36,324 nucleotides of DNA from Armatimonadota bacterium. Its GTDB lineage: Bacteria > Armatimonadota > UBA10988. Numbering within the stretch: position 1 is the first letter of the stretch; each line of letters starts with the position of its first letter. Position numbers and translations under genes: made by a program. The DNA lies in assembly GCA_016183835.1 (NCBI GenBank), contig JACPDV010000037.1, positions 1-36,324 of the forward strand, written 5' to 3'. Of the stretch, positions 2,098 to 36,324 are shown piece by piece. The notes under the pieces are model-generated. The model did no database searches. It saw only the letters and a program-made list of their open reading frames with translations, and was not told the DNA's origin.

Positions 2098-4497
2098 ATG
2101 GGCCACTGGCTGGTCGGCCCGGCGCTGATTGTGTGCGCCTCGGCGCTGGCGCTGGACCTGGACGAGCGGCCGCGCGGGGCCGGTGAATGGGGCTATCGTC
2201 CCGAGCCGGGCTCCGCGGCGGAGACCACGCCACCCGGCTTCGTCTGGCGGCCGACCCGGGGCGTGGCGACCTGGGAGCTGGAGGTCGGCCGAGGCGACGA
2301 TTTCGAAGCAGTCGTCTACCGGGCAGAGAAGCTCCGCTACAACGTCCACTGCCCGCCAGAGGCGTTCCCGCCCGGCAGCTACACCTGGCGCTATCGCGGG
2401 ACCGGAGCGGACGGCGAAACCACTGCCTGGAGCCAGGCGCGCACCTTCACCGTGCGCCCGGGCACGCCGGAGCTGCCGCTCCCGCCGCGCGACGAGCTGC
2501 TGGCCAGGATCCCCACGGAGCACCCGCGCCTGTTCATCCGCCCCGAGCAGCTCGACTCGCTCCGGCGCCGGATCGACGGCGACCTCAAGCCGCAGTACGA
2601 CGGGCTGGCGGCCGAGTGCAAGAAGCTCGTCGCCGCCCCGCCGCCCACGGCGGAGCCGCCCAAGTACCCCGACGGGACGGTCCGCGGCTCCGACCCCTGG
2701 CGGGCGGTCTGGTGGGGCAACCGGGAGTACACCAGCCGCGCCCTCAACGGTGCCGCCACGCTGGCCTTCTGCTGGCGGCTGGACGGCAACGAAGCCTACG
2801 GGCAACTGGCGCGCCGGATCCTGGTCGACTGCCTCCACTGGGACCCCGTCGGCGCCACCGGCTACCGCTACAACGACGAGGCCGGGATGCCCTACAACTG
2901 GGGCGTCAGCCGCACCTACACCTTCGTCCATCCGCTGCTGACCGAGGACGAGCGCGCCCTCGCCCGGCGCGTGATGAAGGTCCGCGGCGACGAGATGTAC
3001 CGGCACCTCTACCCCAAGCAGTTCTGGACGCCCTACGACAGCCACGCCAATCGCGCCTGGCACAAGCTGGGAGAGATCGGGATCGCCTTCCTCGGCGAGG
3101 TCGAGGGCGCCGATGAATGGGTCTGGTTCGCCGTCAACGAGTTCTTCAACACCTACCCCGTGTGGAGCGACGACGACGGCGGGTGGCACGAAGGCGTGTC
3201 CTACTGGTCCAGCTACCAGTCGCGCTTCACCTGGTGGGCGGACGTGATGCGCGCCGCGATGGGCATCGACGCCTACCACAAGCCGTACTTCGCCAAGGTC
3301 GGCTACTACCCGATGTACCTGCTGCCGCCCAACACCGCCGACGGTGGGTTCGGCGACCTGACTGAGAACGTCAAGAGCCGCAGCTACGCCAACCTGGTGG
3401 CCAACTTCGCGGCGCAGGCCGGCAACGGCCACTGGCAGTGGTGGGTGGCGCAGCATGGGGACCCGGCGCAGTTCCGCGACGCCGGGTACGTCGGCTTCGT
3501 CCGCGGCGCCCGCCAGCCGGTGGCGCCCACGCCTCCCACCGACCTGCCCACCTCGCGCCTGTTCCGCGGCATCGGCCAGGCCATGCTCAACACCACCTTG
3601 GAGGACGGCAACCAGAACGTGCAGGTGCTGTTCAAGTCGAGCCCGTTCGGGAGCCAGTCACACGGCTACGAGGCGCAGAACTCGTTCCTCCTCTGGGCCT
3701 ACGGCCAGCGGCTCCTGATCCGCACCGGGCGGCGCGACAGCTACGGCAGCGAGCACCACGCCAAGTGGATGTGGTCCACCCGCTCGGTCAACAACCTGAC
3801 CGTGGACGGCGTGGGCCAGCGGTCCCACAGCGCAGGCTCCCGCGGCGAAGTGACCGCGTTCATCACCACCCCGTCGCTGGACGCCGTGGCCGGCGAGGCG
3901 GGCAACACCTACCGCCAGACGCGCGAGGGGAAGGACTCGCCGCTCCTCCGGCGCTTCACCCGCACCGTCCTCTTCGCCAAACCGGAGCTGGTGGTGATCT
4001 ACGATCGTGTCGCGGCGGACGAGGCGCACCGCTGCGAGTACTGGCTCCATGCGCTGAACCGGATCGAGACGCCGGACCAGCACAGCTTGCTGGTGTCAGC
4101 CGGGGAGGTGCGCTGCGCCATCGACTTCCTGACGCCTGCGGGCCTGACGTTCAGGCAGACCGATCAGTACGACCCGAACCCGCGCGAGCGGGTGACGGTG
4201 CGCGAGTGGCACCTCACGGCGACGGCCGAGCCGCGGGAGCAGGTGGAGTTCGTGACCCTCTACAGGCCCTACCGCGCCGGTCAGGAGCCACCGCGCGACG
4301 CCACCTTGACCCCGCTCGACGGCGGCTACGCACTGCGCGTGAAGCTGACCGACGGTGAGCTGGCGGCGCTCCTGCCGAGGCGCGACGATGCGAAGCTCGC
4401 TGCCGTGGGGCTCGAGACCACGGGCGTGGTGGCCGCCGAACGACGCGACCCGGCGGGCAGAGCGCGTGACCGGGTGAGGCTCGATCGGTTGCCCTGA
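2098..4497 (+). CDS. secreted heparinase II/III-like polysaccharide lyase family protein (DUF4962-type N-terminus plus Hepar_II_III C-terminal region)
   Basis: The start was chosen at MGHWLVGPALIVCASALALD (signal-peptide-like), preceded by GGAG. The N-terminal pattern (PPGFVWRP...WELEVG...YTWRYR) and the later SPFGSQSHGYEAQNSF...HHAKWMWSTRSVNNLTVDG resemble heparinase II/III-like and alginate-lyase-like proteins. Confidence 0.8.
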   Translation: MGHWLVGPALIVCASALALDLDERPRGAGEWGYRPEPGSAAETTPPGFVWRPTRGVATWELEVGRGDDFEAVVYRAEKLRYNVHCPPEAFPPGSYTWRYRGTGADGETTAWSQARTFTVRPGTPELPLPPRDELLARIPTEHPRLFIRPEQLDSLRRRIDGDLKPQYDGLAAECKKLVAAPPPTAEPPKYPDGTVRGSDPWRAVWWGNREYTSRALNGAATLAFCWRLDGNEAYGQLARRILVDCLHWDPVGATGYRYNDEAGMPYNWGVSRTYTFVHPLLTEDERALARRVMKVRGDEMYRHLYPKQFWTPYDSHANRAWHKLGEIGIAFLGEVEGADEWVWFAVNEFFNTYPVWSDDDGGWHEGVSYWSSYQSRFTWWADVMRAAMGIDAYHKPYFAKVGYYPMYLLPPNTADGGFGDLTENVKSRSYANLVANFAAQAGNGHWQWWVAQHGDPAQFRDAGYVGFVRGARQPVAPTPPTDLPTSRLFRGIGQAMLNTTLEDGNQNVQVLFKSSPFGSQSHGYEAQNSFLLWAYGQRLLIRTGRRDSYGSEHHAKWMWSTRSVNNLTVDGVGQRSHSAGSRGEVTAFITTPSLDAVAGEAGNTYRQTREGKDSPLLRRFTRTVLFAKPELVVIYDRVAADEAHRCEYWLHALNRIETPDQHSLLVSAGEVRCAIDFLTPAGLTFRQTDQYDPNPRERVTVREWHLTATAEPREQVEFVTLYRPYRAGQEPPRDATLTPLDGGYALRVKLTDGELAALLPRRDDAKLAAVGLETTGVVAAERRDPAGRARDRVRLDRLP

Positions 4498-9397: not shown

Positions 9398-9476
9398 GGA
9401 CGGGCGGGGGAACCCCGCCCCTACCTGCGGCGCGGGACGTAACGGACCGGTAGGGGCGGGGTCTCCCCGCCCGTCC
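9398..9476. repeat. inverted pair of 28-nt GC hairpin units (GGACGGGCGGGG-N3-CCCCGCCCCTACC) separated by 23 nt
   Basis: Unit 1 is 9398-9425 (ggacgggcgggggaaccccgcccctacc). Unit 2 is 9449-9476 (ggtaggggcggggtctccccgcccgtcc). The reverse complement of unit 2 equals unit 1 except in the 3-nt loop. Each unit folds as an 8-bp G/C stem. Confidence 0.8.
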
Positions 9477-9493: not shown

Positions 9494-11761
9494 TCATTTG
9501 ATCCTCCAATGCAGCGGCTTCCCGACCTCCTGCATCTGCTTGATGCCGAGGTAGCCGAGGATGCTCACCGCCAGCATCCCGTTGCTCTCCGTCCGCCCGC
9601 AGCCGCCCGCGGGCGCGCGGTCGAGGAAATCGTGCCAGCCGCGCTCCACGCTCCAGCGCCGGTCCAGCACCGTCAACCAGCCGGTCATCTTCTCATCCGG
9701 CCCCACCGTGTCCAGCCACTCGGTGAACAGCCAGTAGACGTACGGCCCGACCCAGAACTCCAGCGGGTACGTGAACTTCCTGCCTTTGATGTAGCAGTCG
9801 TCGGTAACGTAGCGGTAGGCCCGCTTCGCCGCCGTGGCGGCCGCCTGCGCCGGGCCCTCGCGGCCGGCCAGGCGGTCGGCCAGGCAGACCCCGTAGAGCC
9901 CTTCGCCGATGTAGATGTTGCCCAGGAAGGTGTGGCAGCCGCCCTCCACCACGTCCTCACACTGCCAGTCGAACCAGCCGTTGGGCTTCATCTTGCGGTC
10001 GCACCAGGTCACCGTGTTGTCGAAGATGGGCCACCAGGCGTCGGGCACTTTGTCGCCCAGCACCTGCATCGCATAGGCGTAGTAGGAGGCCCCCGCCAGC
10101 GCGCGGCCGAGGTAGACGTCGCACTGCCGGCCCTCCTGGTGGTAGGTCTGCTGCGCCACGCTGCCGTCGCCCTTCTCCGAGAGGTGGAGGTGCCGCAGCA
10201 CGCTGGGCAGGCCGTCGGCGTCCTGCGCGCCGTGGGCCATCAGGTAGTCGGCCGTGCGGCGCACCGCGGCGCTCAGTCGGACCGCGTCGACGCGGCGCTC
10301 GGGCACCTGCGCGCAGTAGAGGATGGCGTAGGTGATGGCGCGCATCCACTCGCCCATCTGGTTGGTGTCGTAGCCGCCGAAGGCCTGCGAGCCACCGCCC
10401 TTGCCGATGCCCTCGTCGAAGAGCTGGTTGACCCAGGTGATGGCCCCGCCGGAGGGCGCCTGCATGTGCTGGATCATGCTGTCGCAGCTCTCGAGGAGGA
10501 GCCGCTCGGTGTAGGCGGTGCGCACCGGGTCCCCGCTCTTTCTGAACGCCTCGGCGGCGAGCGCCAGCCCGGTGTCGCCGGCCTCGTTGCCCTCGGTGTG
10601 CTTGCCGGTGGCCAGGCCGTGGAGGTCGATGAACTGCGCGTAGGTGCCCTTGTCGAGCGGGTCGTAGACGTGCGGCAGGGCGATCCGGGTGTCGCACATG
10701 ATGTCGCCGTGGAGCTGGTCGCGGACCCACTCGCACATGCCGGTGCGGATCGAGAGCACGGTGTAGGTCATCGACTCGCCGGGCCGCTTGACGTACAGGT
10801 CGTCGCAGCCGACCCGCCCGCCGAGGAGCGACTTGCCCTCACGCTGCACGTCGGCGGTGACGAGATAGTAGCCTGGGCCCAGCGCGCTGACATCCACGAA
10901 GTCGGTGAAGCGGTGCGTGCCGCCCGGCGGCAGGTCGCCGCCCAGGTTGGCGGTCCGCACCGTCTCCCTGCCGCTGAAGACATCGTGGAAGCGGTAGCGG
11001 ACCTGGTCCTCTACGCTCAGGTTCATCTTTGCGCCAGTCTCGCAGACGAGCAGGATCGGCAGCTCCCTGGCGCCCTGCTCCACGATCACCGCCTGGTCGC
11101 CGGTGTCGCCGCGCTCGCCAACCCACAGACCGCAGGCGGCCGCGTCGGCCGGCAGCTTCGAGAGCACGCGATGCAGCTTCACGAGCTGGAACCCGCCGAT
11201 CTGGAAGACCAGCTCGTCGCCGTGGTGGTACTCGCTCTCGCTGAGGAAGAAGTGGAGCCGGTCCACCTGGTCCAGGGCCGGCACACCCCGCAGACTCTGC
11301 GTGACCTGTTTCCACTCGCCCGGCTTGAGCGCGGCGATCTGCTCGTTGATCCGCCCCTCACCGCCGCTCCAGAGGATGAAGCGGATCGGGAGACCACGCT
11401 CCACCTTGGTGTCGCAGCGGATCCAGTAGGTCACCGCGTCGAAGCCCGAGAAGTCGAGCTTCGGGTTCGGCTGGACCTCGAAGGCGGGCCAGCCCTGGGG
11501 GTAGGCGCCCTCGTTGTGGTGGTCGATCTTGACGGTGAACTCGAACCGCTTGCCGCCCCACGGCCCGGGCTCGTCGAGGATGCGGAGGGTGCCCTCCTGG
11601 CCGCCGGTGCTCTTCCACGGGAGCTGAGAGAGGCTTTCGAGATCGCGGCTCTGCTCGGCGGTAGGCTCCTCGATCCAGCGCTGCCAGGGGAGCAGCTTGT
11701 CGGCGGCCCGGGCGCAGAGGCAGGCCAAGCCCAGGGCTGCGACGCACAATCTGCGACTCAT
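9494..11761 (-). CDS. secreted hypothetical protein; N-terminal beta-sandwich/CBM-like region plus a C-terminal region that may be an alpha/alpha-toroid glycan-active domain
   Basis: Clear signal peptide (MSRRLCVAALGLACLCARAAD). The 755-aa ORF is Trp/Tyr/Cys-containing with normal composition. It is co-oriented with the GH and WD40 genes. Functional assignment is weak. Confidence 0.75.
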   Translation of the reverse strand: MSRRLCVAALGLACLCARAADKLLPWQRWIEEPTAEQSRDLESLSQLPWKSTGGQEGTLRILDEPGPWGGKRFEFTVKIDHHNEGAYPQGWPAFEVQPNPKLDFSGFDAVTYWIRCDTKVERGLPIRFILWSGGEGRINEQIAALKPGEWKQVTQSLRGVPALDQVDRLHFFLSESEYHHGDELVFQIGGFQLVKLHRVLSKLPADAAACGLWVGERGDTGDQAVIVEQGARELPILLVCETGAKMNLSVEDQVRYRFHDVFSGRETVRTANLGGDLPPGGTHRFTDFVDVSALGPGYYLVTADVQREGKSLLGGRVGCDDLYVKRPGESMTYTVLSIRTGMCEWVRDQLHGDIMCDTRIALPHVYDPLDKGTYAQFIDLHGLATGKHTEGNEAGDTGLALAAEAFRKSGDPVRTAYTERLLLESCDSMIQHMQAPSGGAITWVNQLFDEGIGKGGGSQAFGGYDTNQMGEWMRAITYAILYCAQVPERRVDAVRLSAAVRRTADYLMAHGAQDADGLPSVLRHLHLSEKGDGSVAQQTYHQEGRQCDVYLGRALAGASYYAYAMQVLGDKVPDAWWPIFDNTVTWCDRKMKPNGWFDWQCEDVVEGGCHTFLGNIYIGEGLYGVCLADRLAGREGPAQAAATAAKRAYRYVTDDCYIKGRKFTYPLEFWVGPYVYWLFTEWLDTVGPDEKMTGWLTVLDRRWSVERGWHDFLDRAPAGGCGRTESNGMLAVSILGYLGIKQMQEVGKPLHWRIK

Positions 11762-11789
11762 CGGGGTCTCCTCACGCGGCGATCCGGCT

Positions 11790-11880
11790 CCCTCTCCCCA
11801 CGGGAGAGGGCGGGGGTGAGGGCCGTCCCCGCTGGCGCCGCCGATGCCCTCACCCTAGCCCTCTCCCGGGGGGAGAGGGG
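11790..11880. repeat. structured three-hairpin GC-rich intergenic element
   Basis: Hairpin 1: ccctctccc (11790-11798) pairs with gggagaggg (11802-11810). Central stem: gggtgagggc (11814-11823) pairs with gccctcaccc (11846-11855) around a 22-nt loop. Hairpin 3: ccctctccc (11859-11867) pairs with gggagaggg (11871-11879). The element lies in the divergent region between genes starting at 11761 (-) and 11943 (+). Confidence 0.8.
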
Positions 11881-11942
11881 ATCGGAGCTCGTGGCAGGAT
11901 GATCCCTCGGCCCGCCGTCGAATCCTCCCCCGGGGACACCAC

Positions 11943-16751: not shown

Positions 16752-18950
16752 ATGGACCCGCACGCGCTCGAGGTGCTCGAGTTCGGCAAGGTGCGCGACC
16801 TCCTGGCCGAGGCCGCCGCGTCCGCGCTGGGTCTCGAGGCCGCCGCCGCATTGCAGCCCCTTACCGAAGAGGACCAGATCCGCCTCGCGCTGCAGCACAC
16901 CTCCGAGGCGCGGAGCATCTTCGACGGCGGCGACGACATCCCATTGGGCGGGCTGCACGACCTTCGCCCGCTCCTGCACCAGGCATCCATCGGCAGCGTC
17001 CTGCTCGGCGAGGAGCTGCTTGCGGTCGCCCAGACGCTCGGCTGCGTGGCGAAGGTGAAGCACTTCTTCGCCGGCCGCGACGCCGTGCCCGCGCTGGGCC
17101 GGGTGGCGGGCGAGCTGGTGGACCTGCCGGCCGTCGCCGCGGAGATCGTCCGTTGCATCGGCGACGACGGCGAGGTGCTCGACGACGCCAGCGCCGAGCT
17201 GCGGCGGCTCCGGCGGCTCGCGCGGCAGCTTGCCGACCAGGTGCAGGCCACCCTCCGCCGTCTCCTCGGCAGCCTGGCCGGCGACGAAGCCGTGCAGGAG
17301 GCCGTGGTCACCATCCGCCAGGGGCGCTACTGCATCCCGGTCAAGTCCAGCTTCCAGGGCCGGTTCGACGGCATCGTCCACGACCGCAGCGCCTCGGGCC
17401 AGACCGTCTTCATGGAGCCCACCTCCGTGGTGAGGCTCAACAACGAGCTGCGCGAGGCCACGCTCGGCGAGCAGCAGGAGGTCTACCGGATCCTGTCCGG
17501 CCTCTCCCGCCAGGTGGGCGACTCCGCGCCGCTCCTCGGCGGCAACCTCGCGCTCCTGCGCACGCTCGACCTGGCGCGAGCCAAGGGTCGTCTTTCGCGC
17601 CGCCTCGGCGGGGTCGAGCCGGAGCTGTCCGCCGGCGCCGCGTTCGACCTCCGCCGCGCCCGCCACCCGCTGCTCGAGGCTCGCGCCGGCGCCGAACGCC
17701 GCATTCCGCTCTGCGAACAGGTCTACGCCGACATCGGCGACGAGCAGAGCTTGGAGCAGAGCCTCAGCACCTTCGGCTCCCACCTGACCCAGATCGTGCG
17801 CATCCTGCGCTCGGCCGGCGAGGGCGCGCTGGTGCTTTTGGACGAGCTCGGCGCCGGCACCGACCCGGTCGAGGGCGCGGCGCTGGCCGAGGCCGTGCTC
17901 GCCGCGCTCCACGCGCGGGGCTGCCTCGTCGCCGCCACCACGCACCACGGCTCATTGAAGGCCTTCGCCTACCGCACCGACGGGGTCGAGAACGCCAGCG
18001 TGGAGTTCGACTCCGCCACCCTGGGGCCGACGTACCGGCTCCTGACCGGGATCCCCGGCGCCAGCCACGCGTTCGAGATCGCCACCCGGCTGGGGGTGCC
18101 CGAAGAGGTGCTGGCCGAGGCCCGGGCACTCCTGCCCGAGGAGCACCACGAGGCGGCGGACATCATCGTCGAGATGCAGGCGCGGCAGCGGCGGATCGAG
18201 ACCGAGCTGCAGAGCGCCGAGCACGAGGCCGCGGCGGCCAGCCATTCGCGGCGCGAGCTGGAGCGCGAGCGCAAGCGCCTGCGCGAGCTGGAGGTCGAGA
18301 TCCGCGAGCGGGCGCGGCGCGAGGCGGAGGCGCTGCTGGCCAAAGTGCAGGCCGAGGCCGACGGGATCCTGGCGGAGCTGCGCCGCGCCGAGCGCGAGGG
18401 GCGGGCCACCGAGCAGGCGCGGCAGCGGCTGCGCAACCTGCGCGAGGAGTCGCGCGGCGGCGGCGAGAGGCTGGCACCGGGTCCGGCGGCCACGCCCGAG
18501 GCGGCGTTCGGCGAGGGCGACGTGGTGGAGGTGCTCCGCCTGGAGCGGCAGGGGCAGGTGGTAGCGGTGGAAGAGAACGGCGAGCTGCAGGTGCAGGTGG
18601 GCCCGATGCGGATGACGGTGGAGCCGGGCGACGTGGCGCTGGTGAAGCGCGGCGACCCGCGGACGCCGACCGTGTCGCGGCACCGCGTGGAGGTGGCGCC
18701 GGGCTTCGCGCTGGAGCTGCATCTGCGCGGCAAGCTGGTGGACGATGCGCTGATCGAGCTGGACCGCTACCTGGACCAGGCGCTCCTGGCCAACGTGCCG
18801 GACGTGCGGATCGTGCACGGCAAGGGCACGGGCGCGCTGCGGCGGGCGGTGTGGCAGTACCTCCGCGAGCACCCGCACGTGAAGCGCTTCGAGCACCCGC
18901 CCGAGGCGCTCGGCGGCGGCGGCGTGACGGTGGTGAAACTTGAGCTGTAG
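16752..18950 (+). CDS. mutS2: endonuclease MutS2 (MutS domain V remnant plus C-terminal Smr domain), lacking the Walker A segment
   Basis: MutS2 hallmarks are present: ARHPLL, YADIGDEQSLEQSLSTFGSH, Walker B LVLLDELGAGTDP, a coiled-coil region, and the Smr domain (LHLRGKLVDDAL...VRIVHGKGTGALRRAV). No GPNxGGK(T/S) P-loop occurs anywhere in the ORF. Confidence 0.9.
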   Translation: MDPHALEVLEFGKVRDLLAEAAASALGLEAAAALQPLTEEDQIRLALQHTSEARSIFDGGDDIPLGGLHDLRPLLHQASIGSVLLGEELLAVAQTLGCVAKVKHFFAGRDAVPALGRVAGELVDLPAVAAEIVRCIGDDGEVLDDASAELRRLRRLARQLADQVQATLRRLLGSLAGDEAVQEAVVTIRQGRYCIPVKSSFQGRFDGIVHDRSASGQTVFMEPTSVVRLNNELREATLGEQQEVYRILSGLSRQVGDSAPLLGGNLALLRTLDLARAKGRLSRRLGGVEPELSAGAAFDLRRARHPLLEARAGAERRIPLCEQVYADIGDEQSLEQSLSTFGSHLTQIVRILRSAGEGALVLLDELGAGTDPVEGAALAEAVLAALHARGCLVAATTHHGSLKAFAYRTDGVENASVEFDSATLGPTYRLLTGIPGASHAFEIATRLGVPEEVLAEARALLPEEHHEAADIIVEMQARQRRIETELQSAEHEAAAASHSRRELERERKRLRELEVEIRERARREAEALLAKVQAEADGILAELRRAEREGRATEQARQRLRNLREESRGGGERLAPGPAATPEAAFGEGDVVEVLRLERQGQVVAVEENGELQVQVGPMRMTVEPGDVALVKRGDPRTPTVSRHRVEVAPGFALELHLRGKLVDDALIELDRYLDQALLANVPDVRIVHGKGTGALRRAVWQYLREHPHVKRFEHPPEALGGGGVTVVKLEL

Positions 18951-29717: not shown

Positions 29718-29824
29718 CGGTGTCTCCTTCTCCTCCTATTCTCGTGCGTCTGCCCGGTAGACGCCGGAAGTGGCGCCGAGGAGCCCCGCGCCGACCGGTG
29801 AATGGCCCGTCTGGAGACCCGCCG

Positions 29825-32800
29825 ATGCGCTTTCTCCTGCCATGCCTCCTCGTTGCCGTCCCGCATGTGCTCGCCGCGGAGTATGTCGCGCCCCTCACGC
29901 CCCAGCCGCCGGCGCTCGACGGCCGCATCGACGCCACCGAGTGGGCCGCTGCCGTGGGCTTCGACGGCTTCGCCTGGGAGGGCCGGCTCGAGCGCCGGCG
30001 CGTCCGCGCCTGGGTGACCGCCGCGCCCGACACCATCTACGTGGCCATCCGCTCCCAGCTCCCCGCCGAGGGCGCGCTCGTGGCGGCCATCGACAAGGAC
30101 ATCGAGAAGCTCGTCTTCGACGACAGCGTGGAAGTCTGGCTCGCCATGCACGCCCGCGGCAACGCAAAGCAGGATCCCGGGTGGGACGGCGGCTGGCGGG
30201 TCGCCTCCACGCAGCACGACGGCTGGTGGGACTGGGAGTGCGCCCTCCCGCTCGCCGCGGTGGCGCCCGGAAGGCGGAGCACCGACGGCGCCTGGGGCAT
30301 CAACCTCTGCCGCAACTGGAAGCAGGACTGGGCCTTCTCCTCCCTCGGTGGCGGCGGGTACGCGCCGGGCAAGGAGGTGCTGTTCAGATTCGTGCCGGGC
30401 GCGCCGGCGATCCAGCACACGCAGCGGCGGGATCCGGCCGGCACCGACGTCATGAGCGTCGTCGCGATCGCCGGCCCGGCGCGGGTGCAAGTGGTGCAGC
30501 GGCTCCAGCGCGACAAGATGCCGGACGTCCTGGTCGACGAGCACCACGACATTGCCGCCGGCAAGCCGTTCGAGGTGCCGCTCACCGTGGACGACCAGAA
30601 CACCTCGGGCACGTTCACGCTCAGCCTCGAGGTGACTTCGGAGGACGGCCAGACGGTCTACTACCGCCGCCAGGTGGGCTGGCGGGCCGGCCCACGCGAC
30701 TGGACCTGGAAGACCGCCAAGCCGGTCAAGCTCCCGGTGGACCTGCAGATCGCCTACTACCCTTACGCCGCGAAGCTGCGCGTCCTCGCCGACGTGAGCG
30801 GGCTCCCGCCCGAGGCGAAGCTGCAGCACCTGCTCGTCACCGTGCGGCCGAAGGGCAAAGCCGCCGCGCTCAAGTCGCTGACGCTCAACCAGTTCGACCC
30901 GAACGGCCGGCAAGCGGCGGAGCTGGCGCTCCCCGGGCTCGACGGGGAGTACGAGGTGGTGGCCAAGGCCGTGGGCGCCAACGTCCCGGCGGGCGAGGTG
31001 GTCAAGCCGCTGACCCGCACGAAGTTCGAATGGGAGCACAATCCGGCCGGCCGGAAGCCCGCGGTCTACGCGCCTTTCACCCCGCTGAAGCTGACCGGGA
31101 AGACGCTCGACGCGGTGCTGCGGCGGCACGAGCTGAACGGCCTGGGGCTCTGGGACCAGGTCACCGCCGCGGCGCAGAACACCGGCGTCAGCAAGCCACT
31201 CCTCGCCGCGCCGATGCGCATCCGGGCGACCACGGCGAATGGCGATCAGACGGTGCAGCCGGCGGCATTGGGCGTGGTGCAGCCGGGCGAGGCGCGGATG
31301 GTCCTCTCCGGCGGCTTCCGGGCCGGCCCGTTGCGGGCGGCGACGCGCACCACCTGGGACCTGGACGGCCTGGCCTGGACCGAGCTGACCCTCCAGCCCA
31401 CCGGCGGGCAGACCGTCCAGGCGCTGACCCTCGAGATCCCCTTCCGCAACGACGCCGCGACGCTGATGCACGCCATGAACGAGGGCATCCGGCACGTGAT
31501 CTACTCGCAGGCCGTGCCGGCGGGTGAGGGCGTGGTGTGGGACGCGGGCAAGCTGCCGCCGGGCGAGCTGCCCAAGGGCTTCTGCACTTACTGCTTCGTC
31601 GGCAATCCCAACCGCGGCATCGCCTGGTTCGCCGAGAACGACAAGGGCTGGAGCTGGGACGCCGGCAAGCCGAACCTGGAGCTGGTGCGCGAGGGCGCTA
31701 CGCTGACCCTCCGGGTGCACCTGATCAGCAAGCCCCTCGCGATCGACCAGCCGCGCACGCTCCGTTTCGGCCTCCAGGCGGCGCCCGCCAAGCCGCGGCT
31801 CGCGCCCTGGCGCTACCGCTTCTACCGCGACAACTACTCGCTCCTCGGCACCGACATCAACTGGTTCGCCCTCGGCGACTGCGGCTCGGTCTACCCCGCA
31901 CACAAGGACCTGTACCTGTGGGAGATGCTGGCCCGCGGCAACAAGGAGAAGCTCAGCGACCAGGACGTGGAGAAGGTGGTCGGCTACGGGCTCAAGTACT
32001 GGGAGCCCTACGGCCCCGACCGGGTCAACGCCTACAAGGCCCACGTGCGCTACAACCTCCGCTCGCGCTACGGGGCGAAGATGGTCTTCTACTACAACCG
32101 CGCCAGCTTCCAGCTCGCCGACGAGTTCCAGACCTTTGAAGACGAGTGGGCGCTGAGCGACTACCGCACCGTCGGACCGGGCAACGGCATCGGCGAGGTC
32201 AAGATCGTGCCCTGCGAGTCCTACGACGACCACGCGCTCTACTGGTACGGCAAGTCGTTCGATGTGGGCGGCAACCAGGGGGTCTACTGGGACAACTGGT
32301 TCATCTGCCCGACGCAGAACACGACGATGACCGACGCCTACCGCACCCCGGACGGCTCGGTGGTGCCGGCGGCGGGCATCCTGGGCATGCGCGAGCTATG
32401 CCGCCGCACCTTCAACTACATGAACGAGCGGAAGATGACGCCCATCACCTTCCCGCACATGACGAGCACCAACATCCTGCCGATGCACGGCTTCGCCACG
32501 GTGCAGTACGACTGGGAGTGGAAGTACAGCGAGGGCGACGTGCAGAACCGCTTCCCGCGCGAGTACCTGCTGCTGGTCAGCAACGGCGATCTGGCGGGCA
32601 CCTGGCCGGTGCTGCTGGGCGACCACGGCCCGCAGGCGGAGGACCCGTGGACGCAGCGCACGTTCGCGGCGGTGAGTATCGTCCACGAGCTGAACCCGAG
32701 CACGGCGGGCTGGCAGAAGTGCTACGCGCTGTCGTGGAAGCCGTTCATCGAGCCCATCATCGCGCTGCTGGACGATCCGGCGCTGGTGGTCTACCGCTAC

Positions 32801-33076
32801 TGGGACGAGCGCCCGCAGCCGGTGACGGCGAACGACCCGGACCTGCCGACCATCGTCTACAGCGTGCTTGGCAAGGAGGCGGTGGCGGCGGTGGTGAGCT
32901 ACGCTGGCGAGGACCGCGACGTAACACTGACCATCGACCCGGCGGCGCTGGGGTTCAAGGCGGGCTACACGGTGACCGACGTGGAGACGGGCGAGGCGGT
33001 GGCGGTGGCGGGGGATCGGGTGCAGTTCCGGATGAAGAAGCACGATCTCAAAGAGCTGCGCCTCTCCGCGGGGTAG
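29825..33076 (+). CDS. large secreted protein with an N-terminal CBM9/DOMON-like module; putative glycan-active enzyme of unassigned family
   Basis: The start was chosen at MRFLLPCLLVAVPHVLAAE (signal peptide), with GGAGAC 8 nt upstream. PPALDGRIDATEWAAA...DSVEVW...WECALP resembles CBM9-type modules. The 1083-aa ORF has normal composition. The catalytic family was not recognised. Confidence 0.8.
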   Translation: MRFLLPCLLVAVPHVLAAEYVAPLTPQPPALDGRIDATEWAAAVGFDGFAWEGRLERRRVRAWVTAAPDTIYVAIRSQLPAEGALVAAIDKDIEKLVFDDSVEVWLAMHARGNAKQDPGWDGGWRVASTQHDGWWDWECALPLAAVAPGRRSTDGAWGINLCRNWKQDWAFSSLGGGGYAPGKEVLFRFVPGAPAIQHTQRRDPAGTDVMSVVAIAGPARVQVVQRLQRDKMPDVLVDEHHDIAAGKPFEVPLTVDDQNTSGTFTLSLEVTSEDGQTVYYRRQVGWRAGPRDWTWKTAKPVKLPVDLQIAYYPYAAKLRVLADVSGLPPEAKLQHLLVTVRPKGKAAALKSLTLNQFDPNGRQAAELALPGLDGEYEVVAKAVGANVPAGEVVKPLTRTKFEWEHNPAGRKPAVYAPFTPLKLTGKTLDAVLRRHELNGLGLWDQVTAAAQNTGVSKPLLAAPMRIRATTANGDQTVQPAALGVVQPGEARMVLSGGFRAGPLRAATRTTWDLDGLAWTELTLQPTGGQTVQALTLEIPFRNDAATLMHAMNEGIRHVIYSQAVPAGEGVVWDAGKLPPGELPKGFCTYCFVGNPNRGIAWFAENDKGWSWDAGKPNLELVREGATLTLRVHLISKPLAIDQPRTLRFGLQAAPAKPRLAPWRYRFYRDNYSLLGTDINWFALGDCGSVYPAHKDLYLWEMLARGNKEKLSDQDVEKVVGYGLKYWEPYGPDRVNAYKAHVRYNLRSRYGAKMVFYYNRASFQLADEFQTFEDEWALSDYRTVGPGNGIGEVKIVPCESYDDHALYWYGKSFDVGGNQGVYWDNWFICPTQNTTMTDAYRTPDGSVVPAAGILGMRELCRRTFNYMNERKMTPITFPHMTSTNILPMHGFATVQYDWEWKYSEGDVQNRFPREYLLLVSNGDLAGTWPVLLGDHGPQAEDPWTQRTFAAVSIVHELNPSTAGWQKCYALSWKPFIEPIIALLDDPALVVYRYWDERPQPVTANDPDLPTIVYSVLGKEAVAAVVSYAGEDRDVTLTIDPAALGFKAGYTVTDVETGEAVAVAGDRVQFRMKKHDLKELRLSAG

Positions 33077-33098
33077 TTAGCCAAAGGAGGAGAAAGAC

Positions 33099-33148
33099 GT
33101 CATTGCGAGGAGGTCCGCCGACGAAGCAATCTCGTCAGCCAGCCACCC
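33099..33148 (+). repeat. left copy of the GIY-YIG-associated ~50-nt repeat (core gtcattgcgaggaggtccgccgacgaagcaatc)
   Basis: The core 33099-33131 is a perfect 33/33 reverse complement of 33562-33594. The full 50 nt match 33623-33672 in inverted orientation at 45/50. Confidence 0.85.
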
Positions 33149-33192
33149 CTCGCCGGTTCGCTCCGCAACAGCCCGCCAACCAAGGGCGCCCC

Positions 33193-33513
33193 ATGTCATC
33201 GGACAAGCGCGGCTACGTCTACATCATGACCAACGTCCGGCACACCGTGCTCTACACCGGCGTGACCAGCGACCTGATCCGCCGCGTCTACCAGCACCGC
33301 GAGGGCCTATGCCCGGGCTTCACACGGCGGTACAACGTGGTGAAGCTGGTGTACTTCGAGGACCACGACCGGATGGACGATGCGATCGCCCGCGAGAAGG
33401 CGATCAAGGGCGGATCGAGGGACAGGAAGCTGACGCTCATCGAGAGCATGAACCCGGGGTGGCGTGACCTGTACGACGACGTTGCCCCCGGTGGGAATTC
33501 TGCGGAGGAGTGA
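33193..33513 (+). CDS. GIY-YIG nuclease family protein (small stand-alone URI-domain, COG2827/YhbQ-like)
   Basis: KRGYVYIMTN...VLYTGVTSDLIRRVYQHREG...VKLVYFE...AIAREKAIKG...K is the canonical small GIY-YIG pattern. 106 aa. Confidence 0.9.
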   Translation: MSSDKRGYVYIMTNVRHTVLYTGVTSDLIRRVYQHREGLCPGFTRRYNVVKLVYFEDHDRMDDAIAREKAIKGGSRDRKLTLIESMNPGWRDLYDDVAPGGNSAEE

Positions 33514-33561
33514 CGCGATGGCAGCACGGACCACTCTCGTCGGGGGCTTGTTGGCCAACGC

Positions 33562-33594
33562 GATTGCTTCGTCGGCGGACCTCCTCGCAATGAC
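33562..33594 (-). repeat. internal inverted copy (core only) of the GIY-YIG-associated repeat
   Basis: gattgcttcgtcggcggacctcctcgcaatgac is the exact reverse complement of 33099-33131. Confidence 0.85.
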
Positions 33595-33622
33595 AGTGGT
33601 TGGTGTGCGGGCGAGGGTGAGG

Positions 33623-33672
33623 GGGTGGCTGGCCAACGCGATTGCTTCGTCGTCGGACCTTCTCGCAATGAC
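33623..33672 (-). repeat. right inverted copy of the GIY-YIG-associated ~50-nt repeat
   Basis: gggtggctggccaacgcgattgcttcgtcgtcggaccttctcgcaatgac matches the reverse complement of 33099-33148 at 45/50. Its terminal ...caATGac supplies the ATG of the downstream ORF. Confidence 0.85.
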
Positions 33673-34450
33673 GATTGGGCTTGTGCTGCTGTCTGCCTGC
33701 GGGCGCCCGGCCTCCGCACAGAGCCGTTCAGTCGCTGCTCTGGTCCCGCCCGCCTGGGAGCCCGGCCTGGTCTACTACCAGTCGTTTGACGCCGAGCAGG
33801 GATTGCCGGAGGTGAACACCGGTGGGCTGCAGGCCCAGATGGCGCTGGGCCTCTGCGCCGGCGGGTTCCGCGGGCGGTGCGGCGGACCGGAGGGCGCCGG
33901 CGACCCCAACCAGAAGGCCCTCCGGCTGGTGGCGAAGGACGACACCCTCTCGCCCCACCACCCACTCTCCGTCCTGCTGTGGTGGAGGCTGCCCGCCGAC
34001 CTGCCCGTCAACGGCGGGTTCGACATCCTCTACGTCAACGCCAGGCAGGGCTTCGTCAGCACCTTCGCCCGCGGCGGGCCGTGGTGCGGGCTGGCCGCGA
34101 CCGCCGGCGTGGTGCAGGTCTACTACCTCCCCGGGATCAGCAACGTCAACGGCATCTACGCCTCGCCGCTGCGCGCGGGGCTCGACCTGCGCGGCGGCGT
34201 GTGGCACCACAGCGCGATGGTGATCAGCGCCGGCTCGTTGGTGGAGGTCTACACCGACGGCGCGAAGGTGTTCGAGACCCGCATCCAGGGCCGGCCGTTC
34301 GCCGCGGAGGACGAGTTCCGCACGCTCACACTGGGCGGGTGGGGGCTGTCCATCGACGAGGCGATGGTGCTGCGCCGGCCGCTCGACGCCGAGAGCCTCG
34401 CCGACTACGTGCGCGGCATGTGGCAGATGCGTGCGGCGTATGGATGGTGA
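33668..34450 (+). CDS. putative lipoprotein with a LamG/concanavalin-A-like lectin domain
   Basis: MTIGLVLLSAC has a lipobox (LSAC). The later ...WHHSAMVISAGSLVEVYTDGAKV... is LamG-like. An in-frame alternative ATG at 33518 would translate both repeat copies (LANAIASS.DLLAMT twice), which seems unlikely. Confidence 0.55.
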   Translation: MTIGLVLLSACGRPASAQSRSVAALVPPAWEPGLVYYQSFDAEQGLPEVNTGGLQAQMALGLCAGGFRGRCGGPEGAGDPNQKALRLVAKDDTLSPHHPLSVLLWWRLPADLPVNGGFDILYVNARQGFVSTFARGGPWCGLAATAGVVQVYYLPGISNVNGIYASPLRAGLDLRGGVWHHSAMVISAGSLVEVYTDGAKVFETRIQGRPFAAEDEFRTLTLGGWGLSIDEAMVLRRPLDAESLADYVRGMWQMRAAYGW

Positions 34451-34454
34451 GCGG

Positions 34455-35016
34455 TCACTTGCCGCAACGGCCGCCTTGGTTGTGCGGCAGGCGGGCGATG
34501 CCCTCGGCCAGCGGGCAGTAGCCGGTGCCGCCGGCCATCAACAGGCCGCAGCCCATGAAGCCGGGCAGGATCAGGAACCAGGGCGACACCAGCACGCCCA
34601 GCAGCGTCGCCGGCGCCCACCGTGAGCTGCGTCTGGCGGAGCACGCTGAGGTGCGCCTTGCCGGTGCTCTCGACCGCGTAGCCGGCCTCCTGCCAACCTG
34701 TCACGCCGGCCTCGAAGCAATAGACCTCGGTGCAGCCGGCGTCGAGCAGTCGCTTGGCCGCCTGACCCGCGCGCATGCCGGACTGGCAGTGGAGCACGAG
34801 CTTGCGCCCGTCCTTCGGCTGGACCGCCGCGCAGTCGAACTTTGACAGCGGCATGAGCCTCGAACCGGGAATGTGCGCCGCGGCGTGCTCCGCCGGCTCG
34901 CGTACGTCCACCAGGACCGCCTCGCCGCGCTCGAGCCAGCCCTTGAGCGTCGCTGCGTCCACCGTCTTGAACCCGACTTCACGTGCCGCTACCGGCGCCG
35001 CCACTGCCTGTGCCAT
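34455..35016 (-). pseudogene. rhodanese-domain protein fused to a DUF2892 (YgaP-like) membrane domain; frame broken by a 1-nt indel near 34605-34618
   Basis: Rhodanese domain: LVDVREPAEHAAAHIPGS...LHCQSGMRAGQAA (active-site CxxxxxR loop). After ...RQTQLTVGAG the listed frame becomes Arg/Pro-rich and overlaps the convergent gene. The +1 frame reads TLLGVLVSPWFLILPGFMGCGLLMAGGTGYCPLAEGIARLPHN...K-stop (34455-34457), the canonical DUF2892 pattern. Start is ATG 35016 with GGAG upstream. Confidence 0.75.
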
Positions 35017-35171
35017 GTTCGCTCTCCAACGTTCCCCGAGTCCCTTAACGCTCAAATACCCCCAGGGGTTTCTAGAGTGTGGCACAGATGTGGGAAGCGG
35101 TCAAGTCGGTGGCTGGGGCGGGCGGCGCGACAGGCACACGTTGTGGCGAATCGCGGCACGTCGCCGAGAGG

Positions 35172-35199
35172 GTGTGGCACTGGCAGTCTGCTGCCAGTG
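35172..35199 (+). repeat. palindromic repeat unit U1 (GTGTGGCACTGGCAG-tctg-CTGCCAGTG)
   Basis: A 9-bp perfect stem: cactggcag (35178-35186) pairs with ctgccagtg (35191-35199). The loop is 4 nt. Confidence 0.85.
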
Positions 35200-35245
35200 T
35201 CCGGGGACCCCCAGAACGGGCCCGCCCGGCCGGACCGTGGATCCA

Positions 35246-35273
35246 GTGTGCCACAGGCAGCTTGCTGCCAGTG
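35246..35273 (+). repeat. palindromic repeat unit U2 (GTGTGCCACAGGCAG-cttg-CTGCCAGTG)
   Basis: Same architecture as U1, with one stem mismatch (cacAggcag). Direct orientation relative to U1. Confidence 0.85.
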
Positions 35274-35338
35274 TCTGCGAGGGCATCGTCGGCGCTGAAC
35301 GTGCGGACGTATCAGGTGCAGCCAGCAGGTCTCCGGCG

Positions 35339-35367
35339 CACTGGCAGACAAGCTGCCAGTGGCACAC
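35339..35367 (-). repeat. palindromic repeat unit U3, inverted orientation (CACTGGCAG-acaag-CTGCCAGTGGCACAC)
   Basis: The reverse complement reads GTGTGCCACTGGCAGcttgtCTGCCAGTG, the U1/U2 unit in opposite orientation. The 9-bp stem is perfect. Confidence 0.85.
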
Positions 35368-35474
35368 CCCGGGGGCAACGCAGGGCCCGCAGGGTGTGCC
35401 GTGGCCCTTCGCCGGGGCGTCCGGGTAGCGCCACAGCCGCGGCACGCCGTCGAGGCACAGGATCTGTCCGGCGT

Positions 35475-36062
35475 CTACGCCAGCTCCTCGCGCAGCCTGG
35501 CCAGGGCCACCTTCACCCGGCTGCGCAGCGTGCTCTCCGGCAGGCCCGTCAGCTCCCCCATCGTGACGTACGATTCGCCCGCCAGGAACCGCAGCCGGAC
35601 GGCTTCCGCCTGCCCCGCCGGCAGCCTCGCCAGGGCCTGCCGCACGCGCTCGGCCTCCTCGCGCCGCAGGACGATCACCTCGGGACCCTCGTCGTCCGGC
35701 AGCGCCTCGGCGAGGGGCTCCGCCATCAGCGTCACGCGCCGGAGCCACCCGCACCGCTCCTGGTCCCTGGCCACGTTCACCGCGATCCGGCCCAGCCAGG
35801 CCGACACTTCGCCCCCGCGATAGCCCACTGCTCCGCGCCAGGCGCGCAGAAACGTCTCCTGCACCAGATCGGGCGTGAGGTGCGGATCGTCGGTGAGCGA
35901 GGAGATCAGGCGCCCCACCAGCCCGCTGTAGCGCTGCACCAAGGCTTCCAGGGCCGCGCTGTCGCCCGCGCGGAGGTGCTGGACGAGATCCTCGTCGCGC
36001 TCCGGCGCAGCGGGTGACCGGACGTTGCGGTCTTCTGCGGTTACCTCGATACGGCCCGTCAT
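35475..36062 (-). CDS. ECF (sigma-70 family group IV) RNA polymerase sigma factor
   Basis: The start was chosen at MTGRIEV (ATG 36062), which overlaps the upstream stop as ATGA. Region 2 (DLVQETFLRAWR) and region 4 (LPAGQAEAVRLRFLAGESYVTMGELTGLPESTLRSRVKVALARLRE) are canonical. Confidence 0.9.
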   Translation of the reverse strand: MTGRIEVTAEDRNVRSPAAPERDEDLVQHLRAGDSAALEALVQRYSGLVGRLISSLTDDPHLTPDLVQETFLRAWRGAVGYRGGEVSAWLGRIAVNVARDQERCGWLRRVTLMAEPLAEALPDDEGPEVIVLRREEAERVRQALARLPAGQAEAVRLRFLAGESYVTMGELTGLPESTLRSRVKVALARLREELA

Positions 36063-36324
36063 GGTTCCCCACCCAAGCGTACCCCGCTCGGGGCATGCTC
36101 TGCCAGCGCGCGGTCCAGACGCTCGGTCTCGAGGTCCATCACCCGCGGCGCCAACCGTCCTGCCCGGTCCATCGCCATCACCAGCGGCACCTTCCAGTAG
36201 AGTGCGACCACCAGGAACACCGCCGCCAACGGCAACGCGAGCGCCGCCCACGAGCGCCGGACGAAGTCGAGGCGCGGCGGGATGGTCCACGGCCCAGCCT
36301 CGAGGACCCACTCGACGAACCGGT
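36059..36324 (-). CDS. hypothetical membrane protein, C-terminal fragment (5' end outside the window), translationally coupled to the ECF sigma gene
   Basis: This is not in the ORF track because it has no start in the window. The minus-strand frame reads RFVEWVLEAGPWTIPPRLDFVRRSWAALALPLAAVFLVVALYWKVPLVMAMDRAGRLAPRVMDLETERLDRALAEHAPSGVRLGGEP-stop. It has strongly G/C-biased third positions and one TM helix. Its TGA overlaps the sigma ATG. Confidence 0.5.
   Translation of the reverse strand, partial: RFVEWVLEAGPWTIPPRLDFVRRSWAALALPLAAVFLVVALYWKVPLVMAMDRAGRLAPRVMDLETERLDRALAEHAPSGVRLGGEP

Follow-up and report, generated by a model that had tools for sequence, protein, structure and literature searches.

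Three hairpin units between an ECF sigma-factor gene and a rhodanese gene probably belong to a dispersed, non-coding REP/BIME/MITE-like repeat family

Classical REPs reach hundreds of copies and are usually species-specific. Hairpin MITEs, such as the Correia elements of Neisseria, ERIC and RUP, are non-coding elements of around 100 bp with terminal inverted repeats and target-site duplications, which occur in many intergenic copies and whose internal part can adopt a fold in RNA. An 8-bp target duplication is typical of DDE transposases, and HUH/RAYT enzymes are not known to make one. The REP superfamilies are recognised by a conserved unpaired tag, GTAG or CGTC (PMC3733652), and the class 3 TnpA-Y1 genes of Planctomycetes and Acidobacteria are flanked by atypical secondary structures that have the foot CnGA (PMC6006769). 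The hairpin units under study share features with each of these systems and differ from all of them.

The window, which is the whole stretch of 36,324 nucleotides that was analysed, carries on its minus strand an ECF sigma-factor gene (35475–36062; Pfam Sigma70_r2 and r4) and, downstream of the repeats, a rhodanese/YgaP-like gene (34405–35016), separated by a spacer of 458 nt (35017–35474). A preliminary description of this DNA had placed three palindromes in the spacer and assigned the two flanking minus-strand genes as sigma factor and rhodanese. The Pfam analysis confirms both genes, and the palindromes are present as described, with 9-bp stems, the loops TCTG, CTTG and ACAAG in U1, U2 and U3, a direct orientation of U1 and U2, an inverted U3, and gaps of 46 and 65 nt between the units. 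Using a covariance model trained on 71 copies from other genomes, we find that U1, U2 and U3 are the sole matches in the window. The canonical unit is U3 (minus strand, core 35339–35367, model span 35335–35371; 50.1 bits, E 4e-12), whose minus-strand reading consists of the tail GGGGTGTGC (GTGTGC in the core), the stem CACTGGCAG/CTGCCAGTG and the loop CTTGT, and which is 100% identical across 28–31 nt to copies in many other genomes. U2 (plus strand, core 35246–35273, model span 35242–35277; 41.9 bits, E 7e-10) has the tail GTGTGC, a stem CACAGGCAG/CTGCCAGTG that contains one A.A mismatch, and CTTG as its canonical loop. The divergent unit is U1 (plus strand, core 35172–35199, model span 35168–35203; 29.8 bits, E 2e-6), with the tail AGGGTGTGG (GTGTGG in the core), the stem CACTGGCAG/CTGCCAGTG and the atypical loop TCTG, its DNA fold being of −11.8 kcal/mol (z −3.6). 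The pattern CTGGCAG-N3-7-CTGCCAG is found in the 36-kb window at this spacer only, with 0.01 occurrences expected.

A scan for the exact palindrome CACTGGCAG-N4-5-CTGCCAGTG across 185,579 species-representative genomes returned at least 117 loci. Among the matches listed, the full oriented unit is present at about 104 loci in about 50 MAGs, and a few of the palindromes are chance occurrences in unrelated bacteria, lacking the tail and having other loops. The labels of the carrier MAGs are, again among the matches listed, nearly all Planctomycetota (Phycisphaerae/Phycisphaerales, Tepidisphaeraceae, Sedimentisphaerales, Pirellulales and Planctomycetaceae), three being labelled otherwise (Thermoanaerobaculia, Nitrospinota and 'bacterium'). 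The oriented unit is of 30 nt, G(G/T)GTG(C/G)-CACNGGCNG-CT(T/C)G(Y)-CNGCCNGTG, and comprises an unpaired 5' tail, G(G/T)GTG(C/G), a G+C-rich stem of 9 bp, CACNGGCNG, and a loop of 4–5 nt, CT(T/C)G(Y). It is asymmetric: in 101 of 120 copies the GTG(C/G) tail, most often GGGTGC, is confined to a single side, and the direction of the loop is tied to the tail, as in tail-first orientation the loop always reads CT(T/C)G, to which a pyrimidine may be added. A G+C-rich palindrome of 20–40 nt, one end of which bears a short conserved tail that stays unpaired, is also what characterises the REP, BIME and REPIN sequences of Enterobacteria and Pseudomonas; however, the present tail is G(G/T)GTG(C/G) and not GTAG or CGTC. 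The class 3 TnpA-Y1 structures are likewise REP-like hairpins from the same phylum, in many copies and with a short 5' foot, but CnGA differs from the present tail, no class 3 gene was seen beside the present units, and the motif is absent from the supplementary files of that study (PMC6006769).

Variation within the family respects the hairpin. Stem variants keep complementarity, with T-A replaced by G-C at pair 4 and A-T by G-C or T-A at pair 8, and other stems have both arms changed (CACGGGCGG/CCGCCCGTG, CACTGGCGG, CACGGGCAG, CACTGGCTG), in an alignment that is partly circular because the copies were chosen for pairing. In an unselected test that started from the tail and CAC only, 127 of 204 sites had 0–1 stem mismatches, 71 had 4–7 and just 6 had 2–3, half-decayed copies being therefore few. 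When applied to 364 kb of control loci, which had been selected through an unrelated protein, the covariance model returned nothing convincing except at locus L145, from a Planctomycetota MAG, where three clustered units (11225–11333) represent a sister hairpin family: these share with the present units the GGTGG/CCACC tails and the CAC-NGGC stem start, but have 8-bp stems and 3-nt loops (triloops).

Dispersal is evident also in the source. In Logan contigs of the source reads, a groundwater metagenome run (X1), the limits of U1 and U3 coincide exactly with contig ends, and the depth over the units is of about 130–140 versus about 8 in the unique flanks, that is around 17-fold. The U3-type unit is found at 90% identity or more on 14 contigs of this run, most of them at a depth of 4–9 like the window, and their flanks diverge immediately outside the 30-nt unit. 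From the number of contigs and the depth, the source therefore holds about 15–20 copies of the U3-type variant alone; other doublets in the run have spacers of 19–22 nt. Overall, the copy number appears to be of tens per genome, with up to at least 12 loci per MAG and about 16 extra clusters per Mb in carriers. The preliminary description had held that hundreds of dispersed copies would speak for an ordinary REP family and against a local operator; we find dispersal of that kind, at tens of copies per genome and not hundreds. In this the unit departs from classical REPs, as its tens of copies are common to many distant genomes. The fact that the unit is scattered in the source and in dozens of other genomes indicates mobile, junk-like repeat DNA rather than a locus-specific regulatory site. 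At a practical level, short-k source contigs break at the units in 35168–35371, a cause of assembly fragmentation in such genomes, and the window contig terminates only about 850 nt past the repeat cluster.

The genomic context, obtained from codon-model gene calls and hence rough, reveals that clusters of units are mostly intergenic, beside unrelated genes, and favour gene 3' ends. Clusters are present in 17 of 86 convergent spacers, 7 of 77 divergent ones and 37 of 325 co-directional ones, convergent spacers carrying them about twice as often as divergent ones. The 87 neighbour genes match 113 different Pfam families (e.g. NadA, PdxJ, PepA, response regulators and sulfatases) with no transposase among them, and the genes bracketed by units on both sides are also ordinary (e.g. 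PepA and kynureninase) and comprise no transposases. As to arrangement, 39 of 46 neighbouring unit pairs are forward-then-reverse with tails outward and gaps of 2–60 nt; the two units of a doublet usually differ in stem variant and their tails are complementary, which allows the doublet to adopt the form of a Y or of a long hairpin. U2 and U3 adopt this family-typical arrangement (35246–35367), with outward tails, a 65-nt spacer and an inverted repeat of 19 nt that is 95% complementary, U1 being an extra forward copy beside the doublet. A dispersed, mostly extragenic distribution with a bias to gene 3' ends is shared with REP/BIME sequences, and the alternation of two stem variants in inverted doublets or clusters is reminiscent of the Y and Z REPs of BIMEs and of REPIN doublets. 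This distribution among unrelated neighbours, usually as inverted doublets, supports the REP/BIME-like palindromes that figured among the candidates of the preliminary description. REP-RAYT systems have a cognate RAYT (Y1 HUH transposase) gene with the repeats on its flanks. No RAYT or other transposase was found near the present copies in about 1.2 Mb of 8-kb blocks, searched with a HUH/Y motif regular expression, tblastn with E. coli RayT and the Pfam matches of neighbours. At locus L011, about 75 nt separate a family hairpin from a reverse-transcriptase gene (3456–4424; Pfam RVT_1), probably by coincidence.

Two subfamilies are bona fide MITEs. In the first, the doublet is enclosed by a 100-bp element, present in 32 copies in 4 MAGs, whose terminal inverted repeats are GGTACTGGTA...TACCAGTACC. 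From its 27 complete copies, 23 are flanked by 8-bp direct repeats that match in at least 6 of 8 positions, 15 of them perfectly, when compared to a mean of 1.3 under shuffled pairing. These target-site duplications prove insertion of the 100-bp subfamily, and imply a transposase acting in trans and making staggered cuts. Terminal inverted repeats are likewise found in the second subfamily, whose ends are GGGGTCCRTGACAC... and which has 7–8-bp duplications at loci L013 and L069. The parent insertion sequence of the 100-bp MITE was not among the loci examined, as all 32 left ends belong to short copies. The 100-bp subfamily thus resembles Correia elements, ERIC and RUP in size, non-coding nature, terminal repeats and target duplications, the last two features setting it apart from REP/RAYT systems. 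In contrast to these hairpin MITEs, it is the internal doublet that is conserved here, whereas the outer repeats vary by subfamily (GGTACTGGTA..., GGGGTCCRTGACAC...), no parent insertion sequence was found among the loci examined, and the copies in the window show the 30-nt unit only. Similarity between the spacer and other copies is absent beyond the 28–33-nt unit, and no clear terminal inverted repeats were detected around the copies of the window. The window doublet has one candidate duplication matching at 8 of 8 positions, GGGCCCGC (35218–35225 and 35383–35390), for which the element ends match poorly and the chance probability is estimated at about 0.08.

Tail motifs that occur outside the palindromes had also been reported in the preliminary description, and these are real and enriched: 6 of the 14 GTGTGSC sites of the window fall in the 458-nt spacer, which corresponds to 1.3% of the sequence, and three of these six are solo. 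They are GTGTGGCAC at 35077–35085 (plus strand), which has no hairpin (fold z +0.5) and is possibly a decayed unit, GTGTGCC at 35133–35139 (minus strand), which was missing from the earlier list, and GTGTGCC at 35394–35400 (plus strand), which has no significant hairpin and forms with its flank a 16-nt inverted repeat with the U3 tail (35361–35376 versus 35385–35400). On folding, none of the solo tails forms a hairpin, and none scores with the covariance model. A sigma-70-type promoter for the rhodanese gene, which had been proposed to overlap one of these motifs, is not supported, as only 8 of 12 positions match and a scan of the region for promoters and terminators returned zero sites.

The window hosts other repeats. 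An unrelated inverted hairpin doublet lies between two minus-strand genes (9398–9425 and 9449–9476), with 28-nt arms (GGACGGGCGGGGGAACCCCGCCCCTACC) that are 93% complementary and a 23-nt spacer. A third inverted doublet is placed between divergent genes (11783–11823 and 11846–11886) and has 41-nt arms with CCCTCTCCC-NNN-GGGAGAGGG hairpins and a 22-nt spacer; the genome thus seems to host several families of doublet hairpins. In addition, a small GIY-YIG nuclease gene (33193–33513) is enclosed by inverted repeats that measure about 55 nt and have the core GTCATTGCGAGGAGGTCCGCCGACGAAGCAATC (33098–33155, 33538–33594 and 33622–33673), the right-hand repeat being duplicated as a 78-nt tandem unit. 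This gene splits GH123-like and LamG-like genes that are adjacent in relatives, so that it looks like a separate mobile insertion.

We have compared the locus with related ones, where sigma homologues are 60–64% identical to that of the window. Loci L176 and L177 have the order sigma, anti-sigma (zf-HC2), a spacer of about 100 nt, rhodanese/YgaP and URO-D, and L175 has zf-HC2, sigma and permease. In L124, from an Armatimonadetes groundwater MAG, the order GH123, LamG, rhodanese is as in the window, with a 67-nt spacer and no hairpins. The hairpin unit is absent from all these sigma or rhodanese loci (L175–L177 and L124), whose spacers are of 48–100 nt. In the window, the C-terminus of a zf-HC2 protein is found upstream of the sigma gene (36113–36316), and no remnant of an anti-sigma gene was detected in the spacer. 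The adjacency of sigma and rhodanese genes in relatives argues that the join of the window across the repeats is genuine. The rhodanese/YgaP gene is itself frameshifted between 34621 and 34604, its rhodanese and YgaP-like membrane parts being in different frames: in tblastn it matches intact homologues in two pieces in different frames, and the coverage by X1 contigs stops near 34609. Decay to a pseudogene, strain variation or an error in the assembly could explain this.

The affiliation of the window bears on the distribution of the family. Its MutS2 is 57% identical to that of a Fimbriimonadaceae MAG and then 39% to those of other Armatimonadota, with no Planctomycetota in the 80 best loci, the GH123-LamG-rhodanese synteny is shared with Armatimonadota MAGs in tblastn of the called proteins, and one sigma homologue is on a contig named Armatimonadota_UBA10988. 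Judged from MutS2 and gene order (e.g. 16752–18950 and 29720–34450), the window looks Armatimonadota-like, but its phylum is ambiguous, the repeat family being otherwise encountered almost exclusively in MAGs labelled Planctomycetota. Megablast of the window against the species-representative collection gave no locus match, its best protein relatives being 57–62% identical; exact-protein look-ups of three of its proteins gave zero records, and about 250 kb of other Armatimonadota loci are free of the unit. This points to a spread of the family across phyla, as would fit a mobile element, or else to unreliable taxonomic labels; the Armatimonadota-like character of the window hints at the former.

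Taken together, U1–U3 are in our assessment probably copies of a dispersed, non-coding repeat family of the REP/BIME/MITE type. That the family exists, is dispersed, is organised in doublets and has a subfamily that inserts is directly observed; for the copies of the window, we infer arrival by insertion as in the 100-bp subfamily. The family would spread by insertion through a trans-acting transposase making staggered cuts, and the same or a similar process would have put U1–U3 and three decayed tails into the sigma-rhodanese spacer, inflating it to 458 nt. As a consequence, the sigma transcript would gain three stable stem-loops 100–300 nt past its stop codon which, by analogy with REPs, could stabilise or end this transcript and insulate the rhodanese gene.

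One feature is not obviously predicted by a purely selfish element, namely the conservation of the core together with the small number of half-decayed copies. The 30-mer is kept across very different genomes, the outer sequences differ and decayed copies are few, which could reflect selection on the hairpin itself. The unit may be a conserved, sequence-specific module (CUUG-loop hairpin, GGGUGC tail and Y-shaped doublets) that is recognised by a conserved protein or by RNA-processing machinery and has been spread by different mobile shells across Planctomycetota and other phyla, a proposal that we hold as tentative and rather doubtful. If true, this would mean either that the unit has been domesticated as a bidirectional transcript-end or insulator element, or that it serves as substrate in a repeat-transposase partnership that is new and does not involve RAYT.

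Unlikely in our view is that the primary role lies at the RNA level, the hairpin being selected itself as a transcript-end module (factor-independent terminator, 3' stabiliser or RNase site) with mobile elements as mere carriers. A number of observations are in agreement with such a role. Read tail-first, nearly all loops are CUUG or CUCG(Y) with a closing G-C pair, and G-C-closed CUUG-type loops are a class of stable tetraloops. Single units downstream of genes are sense in 26 cases versus antisense in 13, clusters favour gene 3' ends, decayed copies are few, and the fact that the core is conserved although the outer ends vary would suit a role in RNA as well as in protein binding. In the window, U3 is in sense orientation about 104 nt past the sigma stop codon, the sigma transcript would run into U3, U2 and U1, and in the predicted fold of the minus-strand spacer RNA, which is better than that of shuffles (z −4.3), U3 pairs with U2. 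However, no U-tract follows the hairpins, the bases at these positions being variable, and stem mismatches have no preference for G.U on either strand (4 versus 4). Moreover, doublets have a symmetric build, the local transcript would contain U1 and U2 in antisense, some of the clusters are found in divergent spacers, and a Rfam search of 34800–35700 with E up to 10 gave noise only (best hits of 15–17 bits, E 0.9–8, far below threshold). Hairpins acting in the 3' UTR of the sigma gene, which the preliminary description had also considered, are possible as a side effect only, the lack of a U-tract and of a G.U bias speaking against more. An intrinsic (Rho-independent) terminator was considered separately and rejected, since the U-run after the hairpin is absent and the scan returned no site.

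Even less probable, indeed highly so, is an array of operators or binding sites for a regulator acting locally on the rhodanese or sigma gene, or for a global nucleoid-type protein. Inverted repeats of 9 bp around a 4–5-bp centre do resemble sites for dimers, the stretch upstream of the rhodanese gene is crowded with three such sites and three half-motifs, and the sequence is strongly conserved across genomes. Yet neighbours are functionally unrelated, the sites are rarer in divergent (promoter) spacers, an asymmetric tail and loop is unexpected for a symmetric dimer site, copies with target-site duplications arrive by insertion, and related sigma/rhodanese loci are devoid of units; the last point goes against the locus-specific operator array of the preliminary description. 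A reading of the units as sigma-54-type promoters, on the resemblance of TGGCAG-N5-CTGC to TGGCAC-N5-TTGC, has practically negligible probability: although 5-nt-loop units have GG and GC dinucleotides at the sigma-54 spacing, about one third of the units have 4-nt loops that shift it, the stems co-vary as a palindrome, which is not required of a promoter, the location is biased to gene 3' ends, and the consensus departs at two core positions.

In light of the reading of U1–U3 as members of a REP/BIME/MITE-like family, the 458-nt spacer would be a landing pad for repeat elements rather than a region devoted to control of the rhodanese or sigma gene. No description of the motif was found in Rfam or in the literature searched, including that on REP, MITE and RAYT in Planctomycetes, so that the family, whose hairpin core is conserved across many uncultured Planctomycetota, is undescribed in these sources. 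It has unusual traits, such as its packaging in MITEs with 8-bp duplications in some genomes and its apparent presence in genomes labelled as other phyla. These repeats may thus serve as a marker of horizontal exchange in groundwater and soil bacteria, and may provide a lead to the enzyme that moves them.
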